Below are positions 209 through 17,043 of a DNA stretch of 17,043 nt, in pieces. The translations under genes and the position numbers were made by a program. The notes beneath the pieces are model-generated. The model saw only the letters and a list, made by a program, of their open reading frames with translations. It was not told where the DNA came from and did no database searches. This stretch comes from Candidatus Diapherotrites archaeon CG10_big_fil_rev_8_21_14_0_10_31_34 (lineage in GTDB: Archaea; Iainarchaeota; Iainarchaeia; Iainarchaeales; 1-14-0-10-31-34): the NCBI GenBank assembly GCA_002763225.1, contig PFAI01000056.1, positions 707-17,749 of the forward strand, given 5' to 3'. Numbering within the stretch: the first letter of the stretch is position 1; each line of letters begins with the position of its first letter.

Positions 209-1717
209 ATGGAACAAAAAGAAATAATTGAATTTGGGTCAGAAAAAAACATTATAATAGAAAATTCAGCAGTTGATTTAATCATAGAACAAAATCTGGA
301 TTACAAAAAAATAATTGAAGAAGCAATAGAAAAAGGATTGTTTGTAATTAAAAGAAAAATGATTGAAGAAAAAATAGTTTTAGATTCAACTAAACTGTCT
401 TCAACAAAAAAAGAAGAAACAATAAAATCTTTTTCTCCTAAAGCAGAAGAAATTGAATCAGATTATCAAATATTAGAAGAATTAAATGTGACAAACCAGT
501 CTTGTTCTGAAGGAAAAGTAAAAAATTTCCTGGAATTTTTCAGAGACAAATTCACTTCAATAGAAAAAATGCTTAAAGCAAGAGGAATGACAAATAAGCC
601 GATTAAAAGAATTAAAACTGTTTCAAAAGGCAATGAAGTTGAATTAATTGCAATGGTATTAGAAAAATGGAAAACAAAAAACGGGCACATTGGATTTAAA
701 TTAGAGGACTTAGAAGCAAACTGCATTGGAATAATTTTGAAAGACGATTTAGCTTTAATGAAAGAAAGTGAAAGAATTTTATGCGATAATGTTTTAGGAT
801 TTAAAGGAATTAAAGGAAACGAAGAAATGATTATAATCAAAGACGTGATTTTTCCTGAAATTCCTGTAAATAGTTTTAAAGGATCAAAAAGAGATGTTTT
901 TATGGTATGCATTTCAGACATGCATGTCGGAAGCAAACTGTTTTTAGAGGATTCATTTCAAAAATTTCTTTTATGGCTGAAAGGAAACACTGATAACCCA
1001 AAAGAAAAAGAAATAATAAACAAAATAAAATATTTGTGTGTTTTAGGAGACAATATTGACGGAATAGGGGTTTACCCAGACCAAATAAAAGAATTAAGCA
1101 TTAAAGACATTGGAAAACAATACGACAAATTTGTTGAATTAATTAAAGAAGTTCCTGATCATATTGAAGTATTTATTATTCCAGGACAGCATGATGCAGT
1201 AAGGTTTGCTGACCCACAACCAGCAATCCCAAAAGAATTTGTGGAAAAATTATATGAAAAAAAGAATTTTCATTTTTTAAGTTCTCCTGGCTGGGCTGAA
1301 ATAGAAGGACTAAAAGTATTGTTTTATCATGGTCCATCATTACACGATTTATATTCTAGTGTGAGTTTTTTAAGTTATTCTAATCCGGCTAAAGCAATAG
1401 AAGAACTAATAAAAAAAAGAGATTTAATGCCAGTTTATGGATTGAAAAGACCTTATGTTCCGGAAAAAAATAATTATATGGTAATCAAAGAAGTTCCGGA
1501 TATTTATTTAGGCGGAGACTTACACCATTATTCAATTGGAACTTACAGGGGAACAAAAATAATCAGCTGCGGAACATTTCAGGAAAGAACTAATTTTCAG
1601 ACACAACAAGGACATGTTCCGACTCCTGGCGCAGTAATATTATTAGAACTAAAAACAGGAAAAGTTTATGAAAAAAATTTTTATAAAGAAGAAGAAGTGT
1701 TAGAAAAAACGGTGTGA
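209..1717 (+). CDS. polB: DNA polymerase D small subunit DP1 (OB fold + calcineurin-like phosphoesterase / 3'-5' exonuclease), 502 aa
   Basis: Motifs ISDMHVGS, GDNIDGIGVYPDQ, PGQHDAVR..PQP, YHGPSL, KRDLMPVYG, PDIYLGGDLHH, GTFQERTNFQ and PTPG, plus an OB-like ELIAMVLEKWKTKNGH segment. It lies directly upstream of DP2. Confidence 0.96.
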   Translation: MEQKEIIEFGSEKNIIIENSAVDLIIEQNLDYKKIIEEAIEKGLFVIKRKMIEEKIVLDSTKLSSTKKEETIKSFSPKAEEIESDYQILEELNVTNQSCSEGKVKNFLEFFRDKFTSIEKMLKARGMTNKPIKRIKTVSKGNEVELIAMVLEKWKTKNGHIGFKLEDLEANCIGIILKDDLALMKESERILCDNVLGFKGIKGNEEMIIIKDVIFPEIPVNSFKGSKRDVFMVCISDMHVGSKLFLEDSFQKFLLWLKGNTDNPKEKEIINKIKYLCVLGDNIDGIGVYPDQIKELSIKDIGKQYDKFVELIKEVPDHIEVFIIPGQHDAVRFADPQPAIPKEFVEKLYEKKNFHFLSSPGWAEIEGLKVLFYHGPSLHDLYSSVSFLSYSNPAKAIEELIKKRDLMPVYGLKRPYVPEKNNYMVIKEVPDIYLGGDLHHYSIGTYRGTKIISCGTFQERTNFQTQQGHVPTPGAVILLELKTGKVYEKNFYKEEEVLEKTV

Positions 1718-1720
1718 AAA

Positions 1721-1829
1721 AACAACTTTTTAGAAAAAAGTTGTATCAAAAAAACCTTTTTAGAAAAAGGGTTTATCAAAAACAAAAGGTTGAACAAAAA
1801 AAACCTTCAGCAAAAAAGTTTAACAAAAA
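1721..1829 (+). repeat. Tandem palindromic (hairpin) repeat, 30-bp unit: two full copies plus two partial/degenerate copies
   Basis: Copy 1 (1721-1750) is AACAACTTTTTAGAAAAAAGTTGTATCAAA and copy 2 (1751-1780) is AAAACCTTTTTAGAAAAAGGGTTTATCAAA, 25/30 identical. Each has a 10-bp stem with an AGA loop. A half copy lies at 1784-1800 and a degenerate copy at 1801-1829. Confidence 0.85.
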
Positions 1830-1989
1830 TAAAATTAGAAAAAGAAAAAAAAATTAAAACAAAAAAATTAATTGAAAAAAAGAAATAAAAACAAAAAAAA
1901 GAAAAAAAATGAAGTAAAAAAAGACAAAAAAAACATTAAAAAATTAATTGAAAAAATTAAAATAAATGAAAAAAAAGAAATAAACTAAA
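1830..1989 (+). other. Extremely A-rich low-complexity intergenic tract
   Basis: Long A runs interrupted by recurring AAAAATTAATTGAAAAAA and GAAAAAAAGAAATAAA motifs, with almost no G/C and no credible ORF. Confidence 0.75.
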
Positions 1990-1998
1990 GTGAAAAAA

Positions 1999-4900
1999 AT
2001 GGAAGAAAAAGAAAACAAAACACCAGCAACAGAAACAATAGCTGAAACAAACACAACAACTGAAATAAATGCAACAACTGAAACAAAAGAAATTCCAGAA
2101 ACAAAAGGGATGTCAGAAACAAAAGAAACAGTTGAAACAAAAATAATTTCAGAAACAAAAGAAACAAAAACAGAAACAAACGCAACAACTGAAACAAAAG
2201 TAATTCCAGAACTAAAAGCAATCGTCGAAATACAAGATTATTTTAAAGAATTAGACAAAAAAGTAAGAATTCAATATAATTTAGCAAAAAATGCAAGAGA
2301 AACAGGGTTAGATTTAAGTGATAAAGTCGAATGTGTTCCTGTGACAGATTTAGCTGAAAGAACTGAAAGCATTATTGGCCCAAAAGGAGTAGCCAAAAGA
2401 TACAGAGAATTAGTTAAAGAACTAAAAGGAGACAGACTAAAAATAATGTTTACTTTATGCAAAGAAATAATCGAACAAGACTGGTGTGAAATTCCTGATG
2501 ACTCAAAAAGAATTGAACAAGCAATCAAAACCTGTTTGGTAATTGAAACAGAAGGAGTTGTTGTTGCGCCATTAGACGGAGTACCAGAAATAAAAATCAG
2601 TAAAAATATGGATGGAAGCAAATTTATTGACATTTATTTTGCCGGACCAATAAGAGCAGCAGGAGGAAGTTCAACTGTTTTACCATTAATTTTAGGAGAC
2701 TATGCAAGACATTTAATGGAATTAGACAGATACAAGCCAACAGAAGAAGAAGTTGAAAGATATGTTGAAGAAATAACAATTTATCAGACAGAAATTTTTT
2801 CAAGGCAATACAAAATTAGTGAAGATGAAATCAGAACTATTGTAAGAGGATGCCCTGTATGCATTAATGGAGTTCCAACAGAAGAAAAAGAAGTTTCAGT
2901 TCACAGAGATTTAGAAAGAATTCCTTCAAACAGAATCAGAGGAGGAATGGGATTAGTTATAACAGAAGGAGTTGCATTAAAAGCAATGAAAATAATGGAT
3001 TGGTCAAAAAAATTGGGTTTGGATTGGAGTTGGTTAGAAAAAATAATTAAAGTAAAAAAAGGAAGTGAAGAAAAAACAGAAATTAAGCCGAATTACAAGT
3101 ATTTGGATTCAATTGCTGCAGGAAGACCATTACTTGCTTATCCAATGAAATACGGCGGATTCAGGTTAAGGTATGGAAGAGGAAGAAACACAGGAATAAT
3201 GGGAAAAGCAATCAATCCTGCTACTATGGTTGTATTAGATGAATTTATTGCGGTCGGAACACACATTAGAATTGAACGACCTGGAAAAGCCGCTCAATTA
3301 TTTCCCTGTAATTCAATTGACGGCCCAATAGTTAAACTCAAAAATGGCAATGTAATGCGTTTGGATTCAGAAGAAGAAGCAGTAAAAGTAAAACCTCAAA
3401 TAGAAAAAATTTTATTTTTAGGAGACATTTTAGTTTCTTTAGGAGATTTCAGAAAAAGTTCTCATCCATTAATTCCAAGCTCTTTTGTAGAAGAATGGTT
3501 TGAATTAGAATTAAAAAAAGAATTAAAAGAAGGAAAACTTGAAGGAATAAAAGAAAAAGACATTAAAGATGTAAATTCAATTGATTGTTTTACTGCAGTT
3601 GAATTAAGCATGCAGTCAGGAATTCCATTGCATCCAAAGTTTTTGCATTATTATACTGCATTAAATTCAGAAGAAATAATTGAATTAATAAAAGAAGCAA
3701 AAAAAGCCGAAAAAGTTTTTGAAGGAGACAAAATAACAGGAGCAAAATTTGAGTTAACAGAAAAAACAAAGGAACTAATGGAAAAAATTGGTTTGCCCCA
3801 CAAACTTCAGGAAGAAAAAATTTTGATTGAAAAAGAATATGCTTATCCATTGCTTAAAACTTTAGGTGCATTAAGCACAAAAGAAATTCAAAAAACAGAA
3901 AAAGAAAAAAGTGTTTTAGATTTATTGACAGAAATTTCAGGGATAAAAATAATGGATAAAGGAGCAAGTTTTGTCGGAGCAAGAATGGGAAGACCTGAAC
4001 AGGCAAAACCAAGAGAAATGAAAGGAAACCCCCACGGATTATTCCCAATAGGAAATTACGGAGGAAATACCAGAAGTATTAACAAAGCAATTAATGCATT
4101 GAGTTCATCAAACAAAAAATTAAAAGCAGAACTGGCTTTATTTCGCTGTCCTAAATGCACTAAAATAATTCCTTTTTCTAACTGCAGGGAATGCGGAATA
4201 GAAACTCTTAGAGTAAGCAAGTGTTCAAAATGCGGCTGGATTGGAAAACAAGATGAAAAAAACTGCAAGCAATGCAAAGGAATAATGATTAAATCAGAAG
4301 AAAGAGAAATAGATTTAGAGGAAACAGTTAATGCTGGATTAGAAAAATTAAATGTCAGGATGCCAAACTTAATTAAAGGGGTAAAAGGATTAATTTCAGA
4401 TTTAAAAGAACCTGAACCAATAGAAAAAGCAATTTTAAGAGCAAAACATGAAATACATCTTTTTAGAGATGGAACAATGAGATTTGAATTACTTAATGCG
4501 CCAATAACTCATTTTAAACCAAAAGAAATTAATTTAAGTGTAGAAAAAGTAAAAGAATTAGGTTATAAAAAAGACTTTAAAGGAAACGAAATTACTTCAG
4601 AAGAACAAATAATTGAAATTTTTCCGCAAGACATTATTGTAAACGAAACTGCAGGAGACTGGATGCTGAAAGTAACTGCTTTTATTGATGAACTGCTAAA
4701 AAAATTTTATGGATTAAAAAGTTTTTATAACGCAAAAACAAAAGAAGATTTAATCGGAGAATTAGTAATTGGTTTGGCTCCGCACACTTCAGCAGGAATA
4801 ATTGGAAGAATTTTAGGTTACAGTAATTCAAGACTTGGCTGGGGCCATCCGTATTTTATCAGCTGCAAAAGAAGGAATTGTTTAACCGGAGATACCCCTG

Positions 4901-7077
4901 TTTTGATTCAGAATGGGAAAAAAATGAAAATCGTTTCAATAAACCATTTTGATGATAAAAGCGAAAAAGAAGAAATACCTTTAGAAAATGTTTTCACTTA
5001 TACAATTGATGAAAAAGGAATGCTTAAAACAAGAAAAGTTAATGCACTACTAAAACAAAAAGCGCCAAAACAATTGCTTAAATTCAAAACAAGGTTTGGA
5101 AGAGAAATAACTGCAACAGAAAATCATAAGCTTTTGACTTTTGACGGAATAAAAGTGTTTGAAAAACAGGCTTCAGAATTTAAAGAAGGAGAAAACTTAT
5201 TGGCATTGCATTCAATTAAATCAAATCAAATTCAAAAAGAATTCAATGCACTTGAATACTACCTAAAAAAACCTATTTTACAAAAAAAACTTTTGAGAGT
5301 CCATGGGTTAAAAAAAGAATTAAGAGAATTTGTTTTAAAAAATAAAGGGTTTACTGAAACGGCAAAAAGAATTGGCTGGAGAAACGGAAAAGCATTGCAT
5401 ACTGCAGTTGATTTTGATTCAGTTCCACTGGATTTATTTGAACTGCTTTTAAAAGACATGAAAAAACACGCAAAAGATTTTAGAAAATGCTTTATTGGAT
5501 ACAATAAACAGAAAAGCACTATCCCAGCAGTAATCCCTTTCAGCAAAGAATTAGGGGAATTGATTGGATACTTTCTTGCAGATGGATGGGCAAGAAATTC
5601 AAAAGAAAAAAACCAAGAGAAATTTGTTTGTCAAGTAAATTTTGTTTCAAATGAAAAAAAAATAACAGAAAAATTAGAGAAATCAATAAACAAAATATTT
5701 GGAAGAAAAGTTTCAGTTCAAAAAAGAAAACTTGATTATATTACTTTAAGTGGAAGAGTTTACTTTGAATTCTTTACTGAAATGCTTTGCGCAGGAAACA
5801 ATGCAAAAAACAAAAGAATTCCTTTCTTGCTTTTCAATGCAACAAAAGAATGCCTGCAGGGACTTCTTGCAGGATATATTGTAGGAGACGGGCATATTAA
5901 TTCTAATTCAATCAAAATGACTTCAGTTAACCAAAACCTGATAAACGATTTTGGGTTAGTCTGCAATCTGCTTGGGTTGTTCCCGCATTTTATTAATGAA
6001 AAAGAAAGAGAAATCAAATCAGGCTGTTTAAAAGAGTTTTATGAAAAAAAAGGAAAAAAAATTTTAATCAAAGCATACGGAATAAGGCTTTACTCAGAAG
6101 ACTTAAAGGAAATTGGAGGGAATTTATTTGGAAGAAAAAAAGAAAAATTCAAGGAAATTAATTTAACTCATAACTTCAGGAAAAAAAGACTGAAAAGAAT
6201 TGGAAACTTTGCATTAGATTCAATAAAAGAAATAAACAAAATTACAAGCAAAGAAAAATGGGTTTATGATTTAATGGTTGAAGGAGAAAAAAATTATATT
6301 GCAGGTTTTGGCAATCTAGCAGTATATGACTGCGACGGAGACCAGGATTCAATTATGCTGTTAATGGACGCACTGCTAAACTTTTCTGAACATTACCTGC
6401 CGAGCTCAAGAGGAGGAAGAATGGACGCCCCATTAGTTTTTACCACAGTATTAAATCCATCAGAAATAGACAACGAAGTATATGAAATGGAAACAGTTTC
6501 TTCTTATCCATTAAAATTCTATTATAATACATTAAATTATGCTGAACCAAGCCAGCAGGAAGTTGAAATAGTTAAAAAAAGATTAGGGAAAGTCGGACAA
6601 TACTCTGGATTGAATTTCACTCACAATACTGAAACATTTGACCAGGGCCCAAAACAGTCAATGTATGTTCAATTGAAAACAATGGAAGAAAAAATTAAAA
6701 GACAGGCAAAATTACAGCATAAAATTAGTGCAGTAGAAGAAAAAGACGCATTAGAAAGAGTTTTACTCTCTCATTTCCTTCCAGACATAATCGGAAATAC
6801 AAGAGCATTTTCAAAACAAAATTTTCGTTGCACTGCATGCAACACAAAATACAGGAGAGTTCCATTAGTAGGCAAATGCACTAAATGCTCTGGAAACCTG
6901 ATTTTAACTATTGCAGAAGGGTCAGTTAAAAAATACTTAAAAATTGCAAAAGAAATCATTCAAGAATATGAGTTAAGCAATTACTTAAAACAAAGAATTG
7001 AATTAGCAGAAAAAGAAATTTCTTCTGTATTCAAAAACGACAAAATAGAACAAAAATCTTTGCACGAATACCTTTAA
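1999..7077 (+). CDS. polC: DNA polymerase D large subunit DP2, intein-containing precursor (~1,692 aa; ~1,208 aa after splicing)
   Basis: DP2 motifs [90 protein letters not shown] and FLPDIIGN, with CxxC zinc fingers and a C-terminal PIP-like box. The start is either ATG 1999 (preceded by AAGTGA) or in-frame GTG 1990. Confidence 0.98.
   Translation: [1692 protein letters not shown]
2020..2220 (+). repeat. In-frame ~18-bp tandem repeat encoding an (x-x-E-T-K-x)n low-complexity N-terminal extension of DP2
   Basis: Translation [67 protein letters not shown]. Positions 2071-2100 and 2182-2211 are 29/30 identical. Confidence 0.85.
4879..6330 (+). mobile_element. Intein in DP2 (484 aa) with LAGLIDADG homing endonuclease
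   Basis: It interrupts the conserved KRRN|CDGD motif. Block A is CLTGDTPV, block B is [10 protein letters not shown], the two LAGLIDADG motifs are [12 protein letters not shown] (5551-5586) and [11 protein letters not shown] (~5860-5892), and block F is [16 protein letters not shown]. The C-terminus is AVYD followed by +1 Cys. Confidence 0.95.
7051..7074 (+). other. PCNA-interacting (PIP-box-like) motif at DP2 C-terminus
   Basis: Terminal QKSLHEYL fits Q-x-x-L-x-x-aromatic-hydrophobic. A C-terminal PIP box is known in DP2. Confidence 0.75.
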
Positions 7078-7079
7078 AT
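7073..7079 (+). promoter_or_regulatory. Putative TATA box for a leaderless transcript of the 7103 ORF
   Basis: TTTAAAT starts 30 nt upstream of ATG 7103 and is preceded by a BRE-like CGAATA. There is no SD, and the geometry matches that upstream of cdc6. Confidence 0.4.
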
Positions 7080-7102
7080 TAATTACTTGCCTTGAATTAG
7101 CT

Positions 7103-7483
7103 ATGCCTGTGCTAAAAAGACAAAGACCATTAAACAAAAAGTTTGAATACAAAGATCCTGCTTCTGGAAGGCATAGAACCCTACCAACAAGACCTTTAAT
7201 AAACTCTGCAGGGAAAGTCAAGAATCCAAAAGATATTATAACTAGAAAAACACAAGCATTAACAACTGAAAAATTAAAAATTACTCCTGAACTGACTTAC
7301 CAAGAAGCATTTAAAATTCTTCGAGGGTCAGGATTTAAAATAACCAACAATTTTATTTCTTCAAATACTGGAGTTAAATCCAAATTTACTGGCGGGAAAC
7401 TAACTGCAAAAGTCTCTGCAGGAACAGCAAGAAACTTAAACCGGCTTTTACAAGAAAACTTAAAAAGAAAGCAAAACAGATAA
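7103..7483 (+). CDS. Small highly basic hypothetical protein (126 aa)
   Basis: ATG-started ORF that fills the gap between DP2 and the convergent gene, with host-like codon usage. It is K/R-rich and no family was confidently recognised. Confidence 0.75.
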   Translation: MPVLKRQRPLNKKFEYKDPASGRHRTLPTRPLINSAGKVKNPKDIITRKTQALTTEKLKITPELTYQEAFKILRGSGFKITNNFISSNTGVKSKFTGGKLTAKVSAGTARNLNRLLQENLKRKQNR

Positions 7484-7490
7484 ACTAATT

Positions 7491-8264
7491 CTAGAAATTA
7501 AGATAACCTAAACTCCAAAGGACTATTAGAATTAAAATTATTAATAAAATAAATGACTGATACTTCCAGTTATGCAAAAGATTATGCATTAAATTTCCTG
7601 AAAAAGTATTTTTGACAACAAAATTAGCTGAATCAGAAATAACTGAAGTAGTATAATTAATCCAGGAAGAAGGAGACTTTAATTCATTTAATGTTTCTGA
7701 AGTGATTTCCCAGAAACCCAGTTCTCTTTCAGGAATTTCTTCTTCTAAAATAACTGAACCATCTACTCCGGAAACAGTGAACTGAAAAGTTTGTTCTTCA
7801 ACAGAAAAATCAATTATCCAGACAGGATACAAAACTTTTTTGATTGAATGAATTATCACATTATCTTTTCCTGTCCTCAAATGATGCGCTGTTTTAATCT
7901 GAACTATTTGCTCAATTTTTTCTGTTAACTCAAAAGATTTTTCTTCAAAAGGAATGTTTTCAGGAAGCTCTTCAATTTCTTTAACTAATTCATCTGATTC
8001 AGGAACAGAAATGCTTTCATCTAATTCTCCTGTCAAGCCGTTTAATGCAAGTTTTCCATTAGATGTGTCAGAAACAATTTTTTTGCCTTCTTCGTCTGAT
8101 TCAAAGAAAGCCTCAAAAGAATAAAAATAGTAGGGAACAAAAACGATTTTTACTTCAATTACTTCAAATTCAAACCAGTTTTTTTCCTCTAAAGTTTGTT
8201 TAATGAAATCTGTTGTTTCCTGTAAAGAAAAAGATAAAGGAAAAGAGTTTTCTTTTAACTTCAT
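7491..8264 (-). CDS. Acidic hypothetical protein with C-terminal transmembrane anchor (257 aa)
   Basis: ORF begins 9 bp after the sepF stop. It has a C-terminal hydrophobic stretch FILLIILILIVLWSLGYL and two related segments, VFVPYYFY...LNGLTGEL and VLYPVWII...VSGVDGSV. Confidence 0.88.
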   Translation of the reverse strand: MKLKENSFPLSFSLQETTDFIKQTLEEKNWFEFEVIEVKIVFVPYYFYSFEAFFESDEEGKKIVSDTSNGKLALNGLTGELDESISVPESDELVKEIEELPENIPFEEKSFELTEKIEQIVQIKTAHHLRTGKDNVIIHSIKKVLYPVWIIDFSVEEQTFQFTVSGVDGSVILEEEIPERELGFWEITSETLNELKSPSSWINYTTSVISDSANFVVKNTFSGNLMHNLLHNWKYQSFILLIILILIVLWSLGYLNF

Positions 8265-8273
8265 AATAAAAGA

Positions 8274-8630
8274 TTATTCTTTTCTCTTAATAATTTTAAC
8301 TTTTGCAGGAGTAACAAGAATTCTTTCAGTTGAAATCCTTGCAATGTCTCCATTTATTTCATCTGCAACATTTCTGATTTGTTTTACTAAGTCTCTTAAC
8401 TTGATTGCATTTCTTTTTGACAAATCTCCAATGTTTAACAGAATTATATTTCCTTTTCTTAATTCAGCTATAACCATTGCAGTGTCTTCGTCTCCAGTTA
8501 AAGAAATAGGTTTGACATATGCATCTGCATCTTCAACCATTGTTTCTTCTTCTACATCCAAGTTATTCAAAAATTCTTCTATATCCACATTATCTTCTTG
8601 TTTCTTGAACATTTTATCCATTAAACCCAA
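8274..8630 (-). CDS. sepF: Cell division protein SepF (archaeal type), ~118 aa
   Basis: YVKPISL...ELRKGNIILLNI...L+DLVKQIRNVADEINGDIARISTERILVTPAKVKI is the archaeal SepF core. The N-terminus is amphipathic (MGLMDKMFKK) and followed by an acidic linker. The start is reassigned to TTG 8630 because of an SD 4 nt upstream; ATG 8621 is the alternative. Confidence 0.92.
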   Translation of the reverse strand: MGLMDKMFKKQEDNVDIEEFLNNLDVEEETMVEDADAYVKPISLTGDEDTAMVIAELRKGNIILLNIGDLSKRNAIKLRDLVKQIRNVADEINGDIARISTERILVTPAKVKIIKRKE

Positions 8631-8634
8631 AAAT

Positions 8635-8643
8635 ATCACCCCT
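8635..8643 (-). promoter_or_regulatory. Shine-Dalgarno site of sepF
   Basis: Minus strand reads AGGGGTGAT-ATTT-TTG, close to the archaeal GGAGGTGAT consensus. Confidence 0.75.
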
Positions 8644-8685
8644 AAAAATAAACGAAATTCTACAATACTATCTGAAAAGAACATA

Positions 8686-8735
8686 TTTTAAAAGAATAGT
8701 TGAATCTTCAGAAAACAAACTAGTCTAATTTAAAT
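8686..8735. promoter_or_regulatory. Divergent promoter region sepF / cdc6 with candidate TATA boxes
   Basis: TTTAAAT at 8729-8735 starts 31 nt before the cdc6 ATG, consistent with a leaderless transcript. TTTTAAAA at 8686-8693 is suitably placed for sepF on the - strand. The AT-rich background lowers specificity. Confidence 0.45.
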
Positions 8736-8759
8736 CATTTTTCGTGCAAAGATTAATTT

Positions 8760-9968
8760 ATGCCAAACCTATTTGAAGCAGAATTAAAAAAAGAAAGCAT
8801 TTTCAAAGACAGAGATGCAATTTCTCAGCACTATTTTCCAAAAGAACTTCCGTTCAGGGAAAAACAAATTGAAGAAATAACAAAAATTTTAACTCCTGCA
8901 TTAAAAGGAAAAAAACCAGATAATTTATTTTTGTACGGAAAAGTAGGAACAGGAAAAACAACTGTAACTTTTCATGTAATAAAACAATTAGAAGATTTTG
9001 TTAAACAAAATAATGCTAAAGTTGCATGCACTTACATTAACTGCAGAAACCATAACTCTAAATACAAGGTTTTGATTAAAGGAATAAAAAAATTTTATCC
9101 AGACGAAAATTTTATTGGTTATTCAGCAGGATTTATTCAGGAAAAACTAATTGATTACTGTAAAAAAGAAAATCAGATTGTATTGATTTTAGATGAAATA
9201 GATAAAGTAAAAGATGTAGATGAATTAGTTTATTCTTTAAGCAGAAGCAATGACGAAATAGAAAAAGGAAGCATTTCAATTATTGGAATTTCAAATAATT
9301 TAATGTTTAAAGAAAAACTTGATGCCAGAACTAAAAGCTCTTTATGCGAAAAAGAAATGGTTTTTCCGCCGTATAACGCAGAAGAATTAAGGGCAATACT
9401 ACAGGCAAGAGTTGAATTAGCTTTTTTTCCTAATGCAGTGGCAGATTCAGCAATAAACCTGGCTGCAGCAATTGCTGCACAAGAATCAGGTGACGCAAGA
9501 ACTGCAGTAATGCTTTTGATGAGAGCAGGAGAAATAGCTGAAAGCAGTAAAGCAAAAAAAGTAACTGACTTGGAAGTACAAAAAGCAAAAAAGAAAGTAG
9601 AAGAAGACATTATTTTTAACATGGTTTCAACTCTGCCGGAACAACAGCAATTAGTTTTAAAGGCAATAGCAGTTCTTTCAATGAGCACTAAAGGAATAAG
9701 AAAAATTACCGGAAAAGAAGAAGCAGGCGTATTGTATTCAGGAGAAGTATATGAAAAATACAAGCAATTAAGTTTAGCATTAAAAGAAACCAGCGTGAGT
9801 TCAAGATGGTACAGGCAGTATATTAATGAATTAGAAACTTATGGATTGATTTTAACTTCTGCTTCCGGTCCTGGAATAAAAGGACAAACCAAATTAATCA
9901 AACTTGGTTTTGACCCGGAAAAAATTAATTCAATTTTAGAAACAGAAATTAAAGGCAGTGAAAATTAA
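8760..9968 (+). CDS. cdc6: Orc1/Cdc6 replication initiator (AAA+ ATPase + winged helix), 402 aa
   Basis: LPFREKQIEEI, Walker A GKVGTGKT, YINC, Walker B LILDEID, sensor I IGISN, FPPYNAEEL, sensor II GDAR, and a C-terminal winged helix (SGEVYEKY...INELETYGLI). Confidence 0.97.
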   Translation: MPNLFEAELKKESIFKDRDAISQHYFPKELPFREKQIEEITKILTPALKGKKPDNLFLYGKVGTGKTTVTFHVIKQLEDFVKQNNAKVACTYINCRNHNSKYKVLIKGIKKFYPDENFIGYSAGFIQEKLIDYCKKENQIVLILDEIDKVKDVDELVYSLSRSNDEIEKGSISIIGISNNLMFKEKLDARTKSSLCEKEMVFPPYNAEELRAILQARVELAFFPNAVADSAINLAAAIAAQESGDARTAVMLLMRAGEIAESSKAKKVTDLEVQKAKKKVEEDIIFNMVSTLPEQQQLVLKAIAVLSMSTKGIRKITGKEEAGVLYSGEVYEKYKQLSLALKETSVSSRWYRQYINELETYGLILTSASGPGIKGQTKLIKLGFDPEKINSILETEIKGSEN

Positions 9969-10196
9969 AAAATGTTTTTAAATCAAAAAAAACAGTGAAA
10001 ATTAAAAAATTGATCAAAAAACAATGAAAATTAAAAAAAGGTTTTTCTAAATAAAAAAAACAGGGAAACTTAAAAAAATGTTTTTATGAACTTTAAAAGC
10101 AGTAAAAAAAATACATAATATTAATCAAAAAAAAGCTTTTCTGAATCAAAAATCAGTGAAAAAAAATTAAAAAAAGCTTTTCTGAATCAAAAATCA
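9956..10196 (+). repeat. Degenerate tandem repeat array (six units, 29-54 bp) filling the cdc6 3' intergenic region
   Basis: Units start at 9956, 9993, 10022, 10061, 10100 and 10154, with approximate consensus CAGTGAAAATTAAAAAAAxGTTTTTxTxAATCAAAAA. An exact 28-bp direct repeat AAAAAAAGCTTTTCTGAATCAAAAATCA lies at 10128-10155 and 10169-10196. Confidence 0.8.
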
Positions 10197-13100
10197 ATTA
10201 GTAATGCAGTCTGATTCAACGAATAAATTATGTTCATCTTCAATTCCTGCATCAGCAATTACTTCTGATTCATTCCAGACAATATAAGTGAAATTTCCTT
10301 CATTTTTAAAACAGGCTTTTCCTTGGTCAACTAAATCAAACAAGTCTTTTAATGAATTAAGAGAATTAGAGGAATCCAATGAAATTGAATTTTGTTGAGA
10401 GTTAGTTGAATCACTTAAACCATCTTTTGAATACAATTTAACTGTAAAAGGATTATTGTTTTGGTTAGTAAAAGGAAGAATCTTTAAAGTGCGTGGAGGC
10501 GCATTTGAAGGAGAATAAACAATTGAAGTAAAAAAAGTTTTTCCTGTTTTTGAAGCATAATTCCAGTATAATTTAAATGCATTATCCAAGTTAGTTAAAT
10601 TAACTGAATCTGAATTATCTGCTTTTTGGTCAACATAAATATTGTTTTGAGTTGAATTTCCTTTAAAGTCAACACATTCTTTTCCTAAACCATTCCAAGT
10701 CAGTAAATTATCTGAAAGAATTTCTTCTCTTTCTTCTTCCAGAGAATTATAAATTGAATAATAAATCAATGCATTTCCTGTTTTATTTAAATCTGCTTCC
10801 ATTATCAAAGCAGTCGGAGTAGTTGGATAAAAATTCATTGTCCTTAATTTACTGGCATTATCTTTTGCAATCTCTAATAAAGCTGACTTATAAAAATTTT
10901 CATTTAAAGAAGCAAAATCATCGTGCTGGATTACTTGCAGCAGTTTATATCCGTCTAATTCAGAAGAAAAAATATTAAATCCTGCAGTTTCATTGACTTT
11001 AAACAATCCATCAGGAGATTGCACATCAAAGCTTGAACCATAATTAGCTCTTTTAAATTCGCTGTCCTTTAACCCTATTTTTCCGTCAAACGGAATATAA
11101 TAAAAAGCACTGTCTTCCAAGCCAGTTATTGACTCTAAATCAGCTGAAGATTGAATTAAATCAAGGTCAATGTCAATTCTGTTTTCTTCCACGCTAACAT
11201 TAACATCATACCATCCAGGAACTTTAATTTTTGAACCCCAAGAATTCTTTTCTTTATCAAAAACATTAACATTAATTTTTCCTTCAGCAAAATATTTTCT
11301 AACTAAATTATAATAATAGTCTTCCTGGTTTGTGTAGTCAGTTGGGGCATCAGCTAATGTGCTCATTGCCCATTCATCAAAGTCTTTAAAAAAAGCAGTT
11401 GATAAATTATCTGAAATTAATGTTGCTTTATAATGAAAGTTTCCTGTCTTATGTTCATCTTCTGCTTTAAATGCAAAAATTCTGTAAAATAATTCCATTG
11501 AAAATTGGGCTGCATCACAAAAAGTATAATCATTATATTCTGTAGTATCTTTGCCGCAGATTCCGTTTACTGTGTAATCGTCATTAATAATAAAAGAAGA
11601 AAAACTCCAGTCTAATTTTATTTTTGGGGGTTCACTGGAACATTGATCAGAAGAAATTTTTTCCCCTATATTGCATCCAATCCAAAAGCTTACATCAAAT
11701 TGGGAATCAGAACTATCATTTAATGCTCCTTCTCCAATGCATGCCTGTAAATTAAATGAATTTGACTCAATTTCTTTTGGAGCAGTTAAAATTGAAACAG
11801 TCAGAGGAATTGTTTTATTAAAATCTCTTCCTGCAGCAGAATATTCAACTAAAATTTCTCCTTCAAAATATTTGCTGGAATCAATTTCTTTTCCCTCAGA
11901 AGTTAAATTCAAAGTAAAATTAATGTCTTTGCCTGAATTAGTTATTGAACTGGAATAAATTGGAGGAACAGCTGAAACATAAACTGAACTTAAATCAAAG
12001 ACAATATCAGTTAAATTTAATTCAAGGAAATTTGAATCGCTTTTAAAGTTAAGGGTTTTAGTCTGAGAAAAAACTTCTGTCTCTAATTCAAACATATAAG
12101 TTAATTCATCTGGAACAACTGTTAAAGTGTCTTTTGAAAAAAGGATTTCAACTTTAAACGGAAGAACAATAAAATCAGGCATTCCATTTACATCAAAACT
12201 TAATTTGATTTCGCCTGACTCAATTTTTTCCTGATTAATGGTTGAAGCCGAAGAAGACAAAAAAGCAGTAAAATCAATTAATAACCCGTCAGAGTCAACA
12301 AGCCTGTTTTCCTGTAATTCAATTGAATCCTGCATTTTAGATAAATTAAGGTAAGTTGAATCAGAAAATAATTCAATTGAATTTATAGTTAATTCTGCTT
12401 CACCAATATTTTTTCTTTGCAGTTCAAATTGAGTTGCTTTAGAATCATCATCTGAAAACAAGGAAACTATAATAGGATTTGATGAATTAATATCCTGATT
12501 TGAATTTACTGGGAAAAACGCATTTAAATAATTTGATTCAACTCCTCCTGCAGCATTAATTACTATTGAAACAGGAATAATTTTTTCAAAATCAAATTCA
12601 TTTATTTTTATGTTCAAAATTAATTCAGAATTAATTGAAAGGTTTTCATTTAAGCCTGCTGTTTCGCCAGTGTCTAAAGCAAGATTTAGTTTAGTGATAA
12701 TTCCTTCAACAGTGAATTTTTCTCCATTCCATTCTCTAAATGATTGTTCAGAAAAGAATTCTGAATTAGAAGAAAAGTCAACTGAATAAGAGTCAATTTT
12801 TTGGTCAAGGAATCCTGCAGACAAATCAAAGAAATTAATTTCTTTTGTTTTAGTGCTTGAATCAATAGAAGAAAAATTAAATTTTAATGATTTAGGAGCA
12901 AAATCAAAAGTATTTATATCACTTACAGTAATTTCTTTAGAAGAAATAGTTCCATCAGGCAGTTCAACACTGATTTTAACTTTAGATAAAGGATATAAAG
13001 CAGGAATTCTTTCAGAACCATTAAACACAACTAAACCCAATGAATCTGTTTCCTGCGGAGAACGCAATTCTTTTTCTCCTGAAACAGAATCAGTTATTTC

Positions 13101-16100
13101 TAATATTACTGCCGCATCTTTTATTGGCTTTCCTTCAATATCCAGTAATTCTATTGTCAGGTTAGTTTCAGTGAAAGCAGAAATTTCTTCAGGGTCAATT
13201 AAAATATTAAAATTTGAGTCACCTCTTATTCTTAGTTCCTGATAGTTTTTATCTATTATTCCAGGGTCGGATAAAGCAGTTTTAATTGAAGGAATTTTAT
13301 TGTTGATTGTTTTAACTAATTTAATTGGAGTGAAATCGGCTTCAGAATAAATTAATCCTTTTTTTGTTAAATCAATTGTTTCCTGAATTATTCTTGAATC
13401 TGCGTTTCCAGTTAAATTCTGCTTTTTTGTTTTAATCAAAAAAGAATTAAATAAAAGCGCATCTAATTCGGCTCCTGCAACAGTGGAATTTTCAATAGAA
13501 AAATCAACTGAAGAATAATCTTCTTTGTTATTTAAAATCAAAGAAGAAAATTCATACGGACAATTTAATTTAACTTTTGAAACCGAACCCAAAGAAATTA
13601 CTTTACAGTCTGGTTCAGAAGACTTACTTGAAACTAGATAAGAATAACAAAAAGGCTTGTCACAAAAACTTAATTCCTGAATTTTAGTTTTAGAATAAGT
13701 ATATGCATTTAATGAAGTGAATTCTCTGTCGTCTTTTGGATCCAAATGGAATTCCGGTTCAGCAAAAGAATTTCCTACAGCCAAGGCCTTGAAAAACAAA
13801 ATTAAGTTATTTGCATCCAAAGTCTGTTTAGTTAACTGTTCTTTATTTAATTTAATTTCAACTGAAACAGTAAAAGCTGTTTCCTCAAAATCTCTTTTAT
13901 CAAAGTCATCAAATTCCACTAAAACTGCTTTTGAGTTCCCTTCAGTTAAATTAGCTGAATTTTCAAAATCAGTCTGATAGTTTCCTGTAAAAGACGTTGT
14001 TTTTAAAATCTGGGCTTCATCAGTAAAAGGATTATTAAAAGAAGAAATAAACAAAGAATCTTGCGCCATTGAAGTCCCTCTTCCTGTTCCAATCAAAAAA
14101 TTAAAATAAAACAAGTCAGGGTCAGGCGAAACAGCTAAAGTGAATTCAGCTGAATACACTTTATTTAAATCAATTAAATCAACTTTTTCTCCGTTTAAAT
14201 TATATAATCCATTAAAATGAATTTCAACAGCTTCTCCTAACTGAGGCAAAGCAATGTTAACTGTTGCCCTTGTTTTTGCTTTAACAACAAAATTCTTTGA
14301 ACGAGTAACATGATAACCTTGTTTTGAAATTATTGCATAATAAGAGCCTTCATCAAAAGAATAAACATCATTTTTTTCATCAAAAACAAAATCTGATTCA
14401 GGAACTTTAATCAAAGACAAAGCATTAAAGAATTCAACTTCAAAGCCAGTTAGTTTAGCAGAAGAATTTAATTTAGTTACATTTAATTTAACTGTTCCCC
14501 TTACTTTTTTCATTCCGACTTCAAAGTTTACAAGCCTGTTTTTATCAATGTTTTTTGAATCAGAAATTCCTTTTTGTTCATTAGTTATTGCTTCAGCATA
14601 ATAATTTCCCGGAGAAATTCCTGTAATCACTGCTTCTCCTGTAAAACCAATTGAACTGGAATAAGAATTAATCCTGTAATCCTTTAATGCACCTGAACCA
14701 AACCTTAAATACACTTTTCCGACAGAAGCAGGGTTTCCGTCTTCATCAAAAACTTTTATTTCAGCGGTTCCGGAATTAGCAGGAGTAAATTTAACTAATT
14801 CAACAGTCAAAGAACTTCCTTTATTCAGGATTTCTGTTTCATCAAAATAAACCATGTAGCCTGAACTAGAAACTATTACAGTAAAATCTTTGTCTTCTGA
14901 AACAGCAAAAGAAACATTAGAACCTTGTTTTAAAGCAATAAACTCAAATCTATTGTCTTTTTTTTGCAGTAATTCAATAGTTGATTCAACCAGAGTCTTT
15001 GAAGCTGAATCAATTACTTTAACTGAAATCAAGCCATTTAAATCTCCTTGAGTTAATTTAGTGCAGGTTACTCCAAAAGTTATTTGTCCTTCTTCAGTTA
15101 ACTCTTTTTCAGCTGAATCACTGCAAGAATATTCCGGAATTGCATCTGGATCAAAAACAGAAATAAAATAAGTTCCTGGATCCATTGAAAAATCTTTTAT
15201 TCCATCAAAAACTGAAACTGAATCAAATGCACTTAAAGGACTGGAATCTCCTTCTTCAAACAAAGAAAACTTCATTTTTTTCTGAATAAAGTCTCCTTCT
15301 TCATCATAGATTTTAATATGAATTGTTCCTTTTGAACCATTCTCTTTTCTGGTTAAAACTATTATTTTGTTTTCAGCCAAAACCTGTTTATCTATTTTTT
15401 CATATTCAGTTGACTCAACACTAACTAAAACATTACCACATGAATCTTTTGTTTTAATCTGAATTAAACCAGTAGTGGTAGTTGAAGTCAAAGAACTTTC
15501 TCCTACAACTTCAATTTCATTTTGAGCTGAACACTTAAATGAAACCCTTAAAAATTCTGTTACAGTTCTTCCGCTTTCGCTTCCCTCTTTAAACCTTATT
15601 GTTTTACTGCTCCACCCTGAATCAATTACTGGCTTCTTTTTTAATTCAATTTCAAAAGAGTTTTCTTTTTCTGCAGTAACAAAAGATTTATTGAAATCCT
15701 CGTATTGAGGGACATCATTTACTTCAACTTTGACTTTAGAGCCTATAATTAAATTCTCTAAAGTAATCTGGGCATTTTTGTCAGTTGTAATTGTTCTTTT
15801 ATTTCCTTCAACCCATACGTTAATTTTATAGCCAGACATTATTTCAGTTGAATTCTCTTTAGTTAAAGTTAAAACTAATTTTCCTGTTTGATCTGAAGGA
15901 GGAAACACAAAAAAAGATAAAAGTAAAATCAACAAAACCAGAATTATTCCTAAAAACAATAAAAATGAAGGGACAATATTGTCTATCGGGTCAATTACTT
16001 TATACACAGGAATTTTTTCGTTTACTTTATCCAAAAAATTGTAATAACCATCTTCCAAAGAATAATAAAAAGCCATTAATTTATCTTTCAAACTTCCATC

Positions 16101-16487
16101 AGATTCGTTTAAGCCTGATTTAGATTCTTTTGCTCCTGCACCGGATTTAAAAGAAGTTCCTTTTTCTTGCGATAAAAAGTCTTTTTTTTCTTCTGTTTTA
16201 GTTTGTTCAGTGAAAGCAAACTTTCCTTGTTTTTCTGAGTTAGTTTCCAGCTCTTTTTTTGGTTTTTTTCTTAAAAAAGAAAAAAAATCTTTTTTTGGCT
16301 GCTGTGATTTAACCTGTTCTTTTGCAAGCTTTTTTAGTTCTTGTTTTTGTTTTTTTATTTCCCTGTTCTCTGTTTTTTGTAACCCGAAGTTTTGCTTTTC
16401 TGTTTCACTGCTTTTGGATTTATTTTCGGGAATTGGTTTTTTCTTTACTAATCCTTTTAATGCATTTAATTCGTCTTTAATGCTCAT
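10194..16487 (-). CDS. Giant membrane-anchored cell-surface protein (~2,097 aa) with tandem beta-sandwich domains
   Basis: Uninterrupted ORF with a K/E-rich N-terminus and a single TM helix (FLLFLGIILVLLILLLSFFVF, ~15903-15970). The long S/N/T/D-rich region has carboxypeptidase-regulatory/prealbumin-like patterns (IKVFDEDGNP...ITGISPGNYYAEA; GSYYAIISKQGY; LLDIEGKPIKDAAVIL...TDSLGLVVF) and a Cys-containing C-terminal region. The start is set to ATG 16487 because of SD GAGGT 7 nt upstream and an ATGA overlap with the upstream stop. Confidence 0.9.
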   Translation of the reverse strand: MSIKDELNALKGLVKKKPIPENKSKSSETEKQNFGLQKTENREIKKQKQELKKLAKEQVKSQQPKKDFFSFLRKKPKKELETNSEKQGKFAFTEQTKTEEKKDFLSQEKGTSFKSGAGAKESKSGLNESDGSLKDKLMAFYYSLEDGYYNFLDKVNEKIPVYKVIDPIDNIVPSFLLFLGIILVLLILLLSFFVFPPSDQTGKLVLTLTKENSTEIMSGYKINVWVEGNKRTITTDKNAQITLENLIIGSKVKVEVNDVPQYEDFNKSFVTAEKENSFEIELKKKPVIDSGWSSKTIRFKEGSESGRTVTEFLRVSFKCSAQNEIEVVGESSLTSTTTTGLIQIKTKDSCGNVLVSVESTEYEKIDKQVLAENKIIVLTRKENGSKGTIHIKIYDEEGDFIQKKMKFSLFEEGDSSPLSAFDSVSVFDGIKDFSMDPGTYFISVFDPDAIPEYSCSDSAEKELTEEGQITFGVTCTKLTQGDLNGLISVKVIDSASKTLVESTIELLQKKDNRFEFIALKQGSNVSFAVSEDKDFTVIVSSSGYMVYFDETEILNKGSSLTVELVKFTPANSGTAEIKVFDEDGNPASVGKVYLRFGSGALKDYRINSYSSSIGFTGEAVITGISPGNYYAEAITNEQKGISDSKNIDKNRLVNFEVGMKKVRGTVKLNVTKLNSSAKLTGFEVEFFNALSLIKVPESDFVFDEKNDVYSFDEGSYYAIISKQGYHVTRSKNFVVKAKTRATVNIALPQLGEAVEIHFNGLYNLNGEKVDLIDLNKVYSAEFTLAVSPDPDLFYFNFLIGTGRGTSMAQDSLFISSFNNPFTDEAQILKTTSFTGNYQTDFENSANLTEGNSKAVLVEFDDFDKRDFEETAFTVSVEIKLNKEQLTKQTLDANNLILFFKALAVGNSFAEPEFHLDPKDDREFTSLNAYTYSKTKIQELSFCDKPFCYSYLVSSKSSEPDCKVISLGSVSKVKLNCPYEFSSLILNNKEDYSSVDFSIENSTVAGAELDALLFNSFLIKTKKQNLTGNADSRIIQETIDLTKKGLIYSEADFTPIKLVKTINNKIPSIKTALSDPGIIDKNYQELRIRGDSNFNILIDPEEISAFTETNLTIELLDIEGKPIKDAAVILEITDSVSGEKELRSPQETDSLGLVVFNGSERIPALYPLSKVKISVELPDGTISSKEITVSDINTFDFAPKSLKFNFSSIDSSTKTKEINFFDLSAGFLDQKIDSYSVDFSSNSEFFSEQSFREWNGEKFTVEGIITKLNLALDTGETAGLNENLSINSELILNIKINEFDFEKIIPVSIVINAAGGVESNYLNAFFPVNSNQDINSSNPIIVSLFSDDDSKATQFELQRKNIGEAELTINSIELFSDSTYLNLSKMQDSIELQENRLVDSDGLLIDFTAFLSSSASTINQEKIESGEIKLSFDVNGMPDFIVLPFKVEILFSKDTLTVVPDELTYMFELETEVFSQTKTLNFKSDSNFLELNLTDIVFDLSSVYVSAVPPIYSSSITNSGKDINFTLNLTSEGKEIDSSKYFEGEILVEYSAAGRDFNKTIPLTVSILTAPKEIESNSFNLQACIGEGALNDSSDSQFDVSFWIGCNIGEKISSDQCSSEPPKIKLDWSFSSFIINDDYTVNGICGKDTTEYNDYTFCDAAQFSMELFYRIFAFKAEDEHKTGNFHYKATLISDNLSTAFFKDFDEWAMSTLADAPTDYTNQEDYYYNLVRKYFAEGKINVNVFDKEKNSWGSKIKVPGWYDVNVSVEENRIDIDLDLIQSSADLESITGLEDSAFYYIPFDGKIGLKDSEFKRANYGSSFDVQSPDGLFKVNETAGFNIFSSELDGYKLLQVIQHDDFASLNENFYKSALLEIAKDNASKLRTMNFYPTTPTALIMEADLNKTGNALIYYSIYNSLEEEREEILSDNLLTWNGLGKECVDFKGNSTQNNIYVDQKADNSDSVNLTNLDNAFKLYWNYASKTGKTFFTSIVYSPSNAPPRTLKILPFTNQNNNPFTVKLYSKDGLSDSTNSQQNSISLDSSNSLNSLKDLFDLVDQGKACFKNEGNFTYIVWNESEVIADAGIEDEHNLFVESDCITN

Positions 16488-17043
16488 TGCCATAACCTCT
16501 TCCAAGTAAAGAAATTAAAAGAAAAGTCTTTGCAGTTAGCTGAAGACCTGCAAACAGTAAAATTAATTGTATAAAAAGTGTTTGGATAAAGTGATGCATT
16601 AATTTCAGTGGAAAACATTTCATTTGAAAAATCTCTTTGAGTAGAGTCTAATTCAAAATCAATTAATCCATTAGCAATATTAGTTATTTTAATGTTTTTA
16701 ACAAAACCTGAATTGACTCCATTAATTTTTCCGTTAAAAGGCAGAACCATGTCTTTTTTTTCGCTTGCAGTCAAATTGCACACTTCATTTTTATGATGAG
16801 TTACAGAGTTATTAGCATTTAATTCAACTCTGTCATAAAACTTTAATGGATTAAATACATTAAAATCAATTGAGTTTGCATCAATTGAAACCAAAGGAAG
16901 ATTACCTGAACCAAATCCAAGCATTGCATCTCCTTTTAACCTGCAACCAGTAATCTGGACATCTCCTAAAGCAGTATATTTTGTTTCAGGAAAAAAATAA
17001 AGGTATTCAAATGGTTTTGATTTAATTGAAATGTTTTCTGCTC
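16484..17043 (-). CDS. 3' part of a hypothetical, probably extracellular protein (5'-truncated by window edge)
   Basis: The frame stays open from TGA 16484 to the window end (…ENISIKSKPFEYLYFFPETKYTALGDVQITGCRLKGDAMLGFGSG…), so the ATG at 16924 is probably internal. It is Asn/Ser-rich with NxS/T sequons and paired Cys (CRSSANC). Confidence 0.8.
   Translation of the reverse strand, partial: AENISIKSKPFEYLYFFPETKYTALGDVQITGCRLKGDAMLGFGSGNLPLVSIDANSIDFNVFNPLKFYDRVELNANNSVTHHKNEVCNLTASEKKDMVLPFNGKINGVNSGFVKNIKITNIANGLIDFELDSTQRDFSNEMFSTEINASLYPNTFYTINFTVCRSSANCKDFSFNFFTWKRLWQ

Follow-up and report, generated by a model that had tools for sequence, protein, structure and literature searches.

An aspartate-terminated intein in an archaeal DNA polymerase D gene belongs to a large clade predicted to splice through its terminal residue

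The DNA analyzed here is a stretch of 17,043 nucleotides from Candidatus Diapherotrites archaeon CG10_big_fil_rev_8_21_14_0_10_31_34 (assembly GCA_002763225.1, contig PFAI01000056.1, positions 707 to 17,749 of the forward strand), which we refer to throughout as the window. It carries the gene for DP2, the large catalytic subunit of DNA polymerase D (PolD), whose frame is open over 5088 bases and interrupted by one insert of 484 residues. The insert is an intein that ends in Asp (Asp484), and on present evidence it is likely to be a working mobile class-1 intein, predicted to splice by way of that terminal residue. The parts of the gene are as follows, in window coordinates.

1990..7077, plus strand: DP2 precursor, large catalytic PolD subunit with one intein; 1695 codons and a stop
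1990..4878, plus strand: DP2 N-extein, with the C-terminus KRRN; matches intein-free alleles of the same genus
4879..6330, plus strand: intein, 484 residues, a HINT splicing domain split by a LAGLIDADG homing endonuclease; assigned by Pfam, model and structure matches
4879..4881, plus strand: Cys1 (TGT), the block A nucleophile; Cys in 36/36 Asp-ending and 46/46 Asn/Gln-ending inteins at this site
5116..5127, plus strand: block B, T80-E-N-H83 (Thr B:7, His B:10); Thr in 36/36 and His in 33/36 members of the Asp clade
5560..5589, plus strand: LAGLIDADG motif 1, LIGYFLADGW; intact, with G230 and G236 conserved
5863..5895, plus strand: LAGLIDADG motif 2, LLAGYIVGDGH; intact, with G-D invariant in the alignment; Pfam LAGLIDADG_3 at intein residues 325-371
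6262..6306, plus strand: block F, VYDLMVEGEKNYIAG; Asp464 (F:4) in VYDL at 6268-6270, Lys471 at 6289-6291
6304..6330, plus strand: block G, GFGNLAVYD; G476-x-G478, Tyr483 (6325-6327) and terminal Asp484 (6328-6330)
6331..6348, plus strand: Cys+1 and the DP2 catalytic loop CDGDQD; loop identity from Pyrococcus abyssi DP2 (PMC4996933)
6331..7077, plus strand: DP2 C-extein including the stop codon; assigned by open reading frame and Pfam

Inspection of the junctions allows the intein to be delimited precisely. The N-junction reads AAA AGA AGG AAT and then TGT (KRRN/CLTGDTPV, the slash marking the junction), and the C-junction reads GCA GTA TAT GAC / TGC GAC GGA GAC (GFGNLAVYD/CDGDQD). The boundaries are fixed to the residue because intein-free DP2 alleles from the same genus read KRRN/CDGDQD (genome G013) and KRRN/ADGDQD (genome G015) across this point. 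The original prediction had drawn the element as 4879..6345, where the start holds and the end does not: nucleotides 6331-6345 are five extein codons (CDGDQ), and the intein ends at 6330. Two alternative boundaries, one ending at the Asn of GFGN and one shifted by a single Cys, were rejected, as the intein-free alleles read KRRN-CDGD and Leu cannot be a +1 residue. In the G015 allele (locus L037), GCA (Ala) replaces TGC (Cys) at the +1 position of the intein. The polymerase therefore has no strict need for that Cys, and the intein may be unable to invade this allele, which lacks the nucleophile and has an altered target sequence. The junction falls directly before the DGD catalytic aspartates, as had been proposed; in P. 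abyssi DP2 the catalytic residues are D956 and D958, and the intein site lies within the catalytic loop, according to PMC4996933. The loop that follows the intein varies among relatives, reading CDGEQD in P0018 and P0019 (L017), CDSDED in P0030 and CDADED in P0033.

Sequence and fold both identify the insert as an intein. Pfam Intein_splicing (PF14890) matches it at an expectation value (E) of 1.3e-18 (67.7 bits, against a cut-off of 35.8), and LAGLIDADG_3 (PF14528) matches two stretches at E 7.1e-10; both LAGLIDADG motifs carry an acidic residue. An AlphaFold2 model built from a 16-row alignment has a mean predicted local distance difference test score of 91.1. In a Foldseek search with this model the best solved match is PI-PkoII (2cw7, E 3.7e-30), followed by the TliVMA intein (7qsu, 7qss) and PI-PfuI; phmmer against solved structures likewise ranks PI-PkoII 2cw7 best (E 2.1e-17). 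The insert thus has the HINT sequence and fold, Cys1 (4879-4881), the TxxH motif (5116-5127), Asp F:4 (Asp464), Cys+1 (TGC, 6331-6333) and an in-frame position at a conserved host site, and the catalytic residues that had been described as intact are all seen. What it lacks are the C-terminal Asn, His G:6 and His F:13, which are replaced by Asp484, Tyr483 and Lys471, respectively; sister inteins have the His of an 'HNF' motif where Lys471 stands. The insert is therefore a class-1 LAGLIDADG intein apart from three C-terminal catalytic positions, with a native Asp (GAC, 6328-6330) at the splice junction itself. The sequence, the run contigs described next and the intein-free alleles all bear out the Tyr-Asp end without either C-terminal His that the original prediction had pointed out.

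A check of sequencing reads at 6325-6330 had been proposed there as well. Contigs from four public groundwater runs, one of which may be the source sample, cover these positions with no other letter, giving GAC and no AAC; the contigs are assembled Logan contigs, in which rare variants stay possible. The closest position to differ is 6336, where one run (X2) has a synonymous C>T that turns the first catalytic Asp codon from GAC to GAT and points to a closely related strain in another groundwater sample. The Asp terminus is also found in a 99%-identical protein and in 34 further distinct relatives.

To place the intein among its relatives, inteins at the same DP2 site were gathered with the window intein from a word-indexed 5.8-billion sequence set and from a HMMER scan of 1.84 billion representatives. 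The scan returned 2091 matches at E <= 0.001, of which the best 150 were used. A relaxed junction pattern extracted at least 86 distinct inteins at KRRN/CDGD; P0073, which ends ID/CDGDEI, and the cluster members P0217-P0223 stand outside this count. Of the 86, 36 end in Asp, 32 in Asn, 14 in Gln and 4 in Arg. The homologs therefore do not all end in Asn, which the original prediction had named, along with AAC in the reads, as an outcome that would speak against it. Its statement that a C-terminal Asp is very rare fails here: among the inteins collected at this site Asp is the commonest terminus (36/86), and it also occurs in inteins of Rpb1 and of a radical S-adenosylmethionine (radical-SAM) protein. 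The view of Asp termini as rarities needs correcting to that extent.

The three deviations noted in the window are real and travel together. Among the Asp-ending inteins the penultimate residue is Tyr in 33, Ile in 2 and Phe in 1, and Cys1, Thr B:7, Asp F:4, Lys471, Gly476, Gly478, Asp484 and Cys+1 are invariant (36/36). His B:10 is present in 33, with Gln in the other three. The position of Lys471 is His in 37 of the 46 Asn/Gln-ending inteins at this site. Taken singly, the two absent histidines are less distinctive than had been supposed: only 8 of 84 site-intein rows have a penultimate His, and the block-F position is occupied by Glu in PI-PkoII and in two His-Asn inteins of this same genome (contigs C3 and C52). 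The window intein carries the Lys...G-x-G...Tyr-Asp signature that defines the clade at the KRRN/CDGD site. Three mini-inteins of the clade without an endonuclease (170-196 residues; P0043, P0045, P0203) keep the Lys and a YD or FD end. In three members, including L017 (G009, P0019) and L018 (G007, P0021), the block-B His is replaced by Gln (TGKQ, TPKQ), and these are therefore without all three of the usual catalytic histidines; PMC4031507 describes the block-B His as the most conserved intein residue.

A maximum-likelihood tree was computed from 86 rows and 487 columns in a quick IQ-TREE search, with the last two intein residues and the +1 residue removed. All 36 Asp-ending inteins fall on one side of a single branch (support of 99 in the Shimodaira-Hasegawa-like approximate likelihood ratio test, SH-aLRT), with one change, and the row of the window is nested inside it at 99-100 support. 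Asn and Gln termini interchange repeatedly, and seven changes suffice over all four labels. The tree indicates that the Asp-ending inteins have one origin and have not reverted to Asn. Because the Asp terminus is common to every member of a deep clade, it is not a matter of chance. By the names of their source genomes, the subclade of the window comes from metagenome-assembled genomes (MAGs) of the DPANN archaea called Iainarchaeum, Diapherotrites and Micrarchaeota, and a second subclade (A-T-Y-D/CDGDED) from Asgard MAGs called Thor-, Loki-, Atabey- and Asgardarchaeia.

Within the phylum, a DP2 intein of the Tyr-Asp type is present in 19 of 215 genomes across 12 families, and within the genus in three of five other genomes (four of six counting that of the window). 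This patchy distribution, together with the intein-free alleles of the same genus, is the pattern of a mobile element. Junction codons were compared in 18 genomes of the phylum (L006-L016, L018-L024): Asp is encoded equally often by GAC and GAT (9 each), and Tyr by TAT in 12 and by TAC in 6. Asn is one G-to-A transition away from either Asp codon, yet it occurs in none of the 36 clade members. Ratios of nonsynonymous to synonymous substitution rates (dN/dS, Nei-Gojobori), taken between the window and three same-genus inteins, are 0.11-0.20 over the whole intein, with 0.12-0.14 in its splicing part and 0.10-0.24 in its endonuclease part; in pairs further apart the synonymous sites are saturated. 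These values indicate that the intein, its endonuclease included, is under purifying selection.

The genome as a whole (1.04 Mb, 81% complete) is very rich in inteins: Pfam Intein_splicing matches it 21 times, across at least 12 open frames. C-termini were read for 11 of its other inteins (contigs C3, C13, C15, C22, C25, C28, C35, C51, C52, C55 and C60), and all of these end in Asn, nine in His-Asn and two in Ser-Asn. The Asp terminus is therefore a property of the intein lineage and not of the organism, and an organism-wide cause, such as an odd intracellular chemistry that favors Asp, was rejected on the same ground. Further Asp-ending inteins were found in Rpb1 (P0102, P0189, P0209, P0191) and in the radical-SAM protein (P0214), with junctions of the form G-L/M-G-x-x-D/T or ...CFD/T (the final slash marking the junction). 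This suggests that Asp termini are spread more widely than the literature examined would indicate.

With these observations in hand, the intein most likely splices, and a route can be proposed for it. Because the residues of the first two steps are all present and conserved, these would run as in an ordinary class-1 intein: an N-S acyl shift at Cys1, aided by Thr80/His83 and Asp464, would be followed by transesterification to Cys+1. In the third step Asp484, standing in the place of Asn, would attack its own main-chain carbonyl through the side-chain carboxyl. Such an attack would free the amine of the C-extein and leave a cyclic five-membered aspartyl (succinic) anhydride on the intein, to be hydrolyzed later. 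We hypothesize this anhydride chemistry, and with it that Lys471 and Tyr483 position and polarize the carboxyl and the scissile carbonyl and stabilize the tetrahedral intermediate; the strict coupling of Asp with these two residues is what suggests them as replacements for the two histidines. The LAGLIDADG domain would maintain mobility by homing into intein-free DP2 alleles. According to PMC4031507, cyclization of the last residue is the presumed way of splicing where an intein has a terminal Asp, Gln or Glu, and such termini, like the loss of either His, are known class-1 variants. The same review assigns to His F:13 and His G:6 the activation of Asn cyclization, describes both as dispensable in some inteins, and puts functional inteins without His G:6 at about 5% (PMC4031507, Mills, Johnson and Perler). 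Of the original prediction's appeal to a non-canonical resolution of the branch at Asp, the general idea stands as the most economical reading and the anhydride as the best available proposal, hypothetical as it is.

Several points weigh against this route. Asp is a poorer cyclizing group than Asn at neutral pH. The takeover by Lys471 and Tyr483 is suggested by covariation, three of the 36 clade members have Ile or Phe in place of Tyr483, and the Asp-ending inteins of Rpb1 and the radical-SAM protein have Leu, Thr or Tyr at the place aligned with Lys471, so that Lys is no general requirement for an Asp terminus. The tree comes from the quick search, and the 487 columns behind it still include three from block F that are linked to the trait. 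Conservation of Cys+1 is weak evidence of splicing because intein-free DP2 usually has Cys there too (as in G013). PolD is formally not the sole polymerase of the genome, since a family-B polymerase gene is encoded there as well. Finally, PMC4031507 adds that where the terminus is Asp, Gln or Glu 'other mechanisms are possible'.

This last remark bears on the first alternative, in which the intein splices and step 3 is not a cyclization of Asp but direct hydrolysis of the branched intermediate or some other route. On such another route Lys471 or Tyr483 would act as general acid/base, with Asp484 merely positioning water or the Lys. An invariant Lys471 would fit such a direct catalytic role, and a sister group ends in Arg, which does not cyclize, so that the site tolerates termini of that kind. 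The Arg-ending inteins share the site, Cys1, Cys+1 and the archaeal family with that of the window, and differ in their Gln-x-Arg end (Leu-Leu-Gln-x-Arg/CDGD) and in standing on a separate branch (SH-aLRT 91). Their F:4-like position holds Cys (Y-C-L-E/D), and they come as mini-inteins of 180-186 residues in L038 and L039 (G018, G016) and in forms of about 510 residues in P0055-P0057 and P0141; as Arg cannot cyclize, they pose the harder mechanistic problem. What speaks against the hydrolytic route for the window intein is the constancy of its last residue, which is Asp in all 36 members and never Glu, Ser or another, as expected if the length of the side chain matters for a five-membered ring; plain hydrolysis has no particular need of Asp. 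We regard this alternative as unlikely.

Less probable again is that ending in Asp slows splicing or makes it depend on pH, temperature or redox state, and that the cell thereby gates the maturation of PolD and replication, as the original prediction had offered. Precedents can be cited from PMC4031507, in which the Gln-ending PolII inteins, at the same site, splice slowly and improve with Asn, and low pH favors C-terminal cleavage in some inteins. The failure of the clade ever to return to Asn, one transition away, would fit as well, though a coadaptation of Lys and Tyr with Asp explains it equally. Neither the sequence nor its context gives a sign of regulation, and relatives in the same genus live without the intein, so the host needs no gate. 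An endonuclease under purifying selection and a patchy distribution are the signature of a selfish mobile element, and the gating proposal is left unsupported.

It is very improbable that the insert no longer splices, whether retained as a permanent domain of DP2 or carried by a dead DP2 gene in an organism replicated by PolB. The ends of the intein lie close together, which makes an unspliced insert in a surface loop conceivable, and the family-B polymerase gene would supply a replicase. A retained insert would, in contrast, interrupt the catalytic loop a single residue ahead of the catalytic aspartates (PMC4996933). Of the residues for which splicing is the only known role, Cys1, Thr B:7 and Asp F:4 are retained in 36/36 and His B:10 in 33/36, and the splicing part holds its dN/dS of 0.12-0.14. 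As for a dead gene, the frame is open over its full 5088 bases and all DP2 domains match at E below 1e-90; on the exteins, Pfam PolC_DP2_N, PolC_DP2_central and PolC_DP2_cat score E 3e-93 to 1.9e-123. Least credible of all is a sequencing or assembly error that hides an Asn codon (AAC) at 6328-6330, which was tested and is ruled out by the contigs of the four runs and by the 99%-identical protein and 34 distinct relatives that end in Asp, with both Asp codons in use.

The remainder of the window gives the intein its setting. DP2 belongs to a replication gene cluster (DP1, DP2, Orc1/Cdc6) that spans 209-9968, of which the other members are as follows.

209..1717, plus strand: DP1, small (exonuclease) subunit of DNA polymerase D; 502-residue open reading frame, Pfam DNA_pol_E_B and Metallophos
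8760..9968, plus strand: Orc1/Cdc6 replication initiator; Pfam Cdc6_lid, Cdc6_C and AAA families; context only

PolD is the essential replicase in most archaea, as described in PMC7708050. A replication origin may lie near the cluster. Its grouping of DP1, DP2 and Orc1/Cdc6 resembles the origin-proximal replication island of Pyrococcus. Three further frames, one of 2103 residues at 10194-16505 on the minus strand and two at 7103-7483 (plus) and 16484-17041 (minus), have no Pfam match at E <= 0.001. At the start of DP2, 1990-2235 encodes about 80 residues of Thr/Glu/Lys-rich repeats (ETKE-like), the Pfam N-domain begins only at residue 83, and homologs are mostly some 70 residues shorter (1622 versus 1695 residues here); the true start codon may lie downstream, or the protein may have a low-complexity N-terminal extension.

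The window intein is an ordinary member of its clade, and the interest lies in the clade itself; for this genome alone it is modest. Asp termini as such are already in print, and the C-terminal variants of the window are within those admitted for class 1. A search of open-access full-text literature, of which coverage is partial, found no paper on the DP2 intein clade with Tyr-Asp and Lys. What is understood of the third step of splicing comes almost entirely from inteins with a terminal Asn and two histidines that assist it. The clade described here is a large natural family that resides in an essential enzyme of replication in two archaeal superphyla; it has made the changes Asn to Asp, His to Tyr and His to Lys together and kept them through deep divergence. 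The clade permits a direct test of whether an enzyme-assisted Asp-anhydride route is real and of what assists it, for which it offers a wide choice of natural sequences, among them the mini-inteins of 170-196 residues that suit structural work, and an intein that leaves as an anhydride, or with a different pH response, could serve protein engineering. A bolder proposal, to which we give somewhat less than even chances, is that Lys...G-x-G...Tyr-Asp is a distinct, co-adapted solution to the final step, a Lys-assisted aspartyl anhydride, and would define a mechanistic subclass, stable across the PolD genes of DPANN and Asgard archaea, that could not simply revert to Asn. Were this true, the intein would be released carrying a reactive anhydride at its C-terminus, as a parallel in nature to the ligation modules engineered to form anhydrides, and its pH dependence would be unlike that of all studied inteins.

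Comparison with known systems places the window intein between several precedents. The PolII inteins of Pyrococcus abyssi, P. horikoshii and Methanoculleus marisnigri (2LCJ, 5BKH, 7OEC) share with it the DP2 host, class 1, Cys1, Cys+1 and a terminus other than Asn, and they match its N-terminal splicing region at E 5e-6 to 3e-4 and in fold. They presumably occupy the same KRRN/CDGD insertion site. The solved PolII inteins are mini-inteins of 168-186 residues without an endonuclease, whereas the intein of the window has one. In the tree, the Gln- and Asn-ending inteins of the site stand across the branch from all 36 that end in Asp. The Pyrococcus and Methanoculleus inteins end in Gln (PMC4031507), in contrast to the Asp seen here.

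The intein of the Carboxydothermus hydrogenoformans ribonucleotide reductase (RNR; Chy RIR1) has a native C-terminal Asp like that of the window. It reportedly splices, in work of Amitai, Dassa and Pietrokovski from 2004 (J Biol Chem 279:3121). Its host is a bacterial RNR, and it is a single case as against a clade of at least 36. PI-PkoII (Thermococcus kodakarensis Pol-2, 2CW7) shares the two-domain build of the window intein, the absence of a block-F His (Glu is found there) and a G-F-G four residues before the end: GFGNL (query residue 480) is aligned to chain residue 533 of 537, which leaves four residues in both. Its host, unlike that of the window intein, is a family-B polymerase. It presumably ends in an ordinary His-Asn.

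For the chemistry of the proposed third step, the closest parallel lies outside the inteins. In the self-processing module of Neisseria meningitidis FrpC, an Asp-derived anhydride cleaves a peptide bond (PMC7846742), where the Asp side chain attacks its own C-terminal bond (Asp-Pro) much as Asp484 would. FrpC differs from the window intein in its unrelated fold, its calcium trigger and the absence of ligation between its flanks, and the resemblance is one of mechanism only. The nearest described relatives are thus, by site, the Gln-ending PolII inteins; by chemistry, Chy RIR1; and by structure, PI-PkoII.

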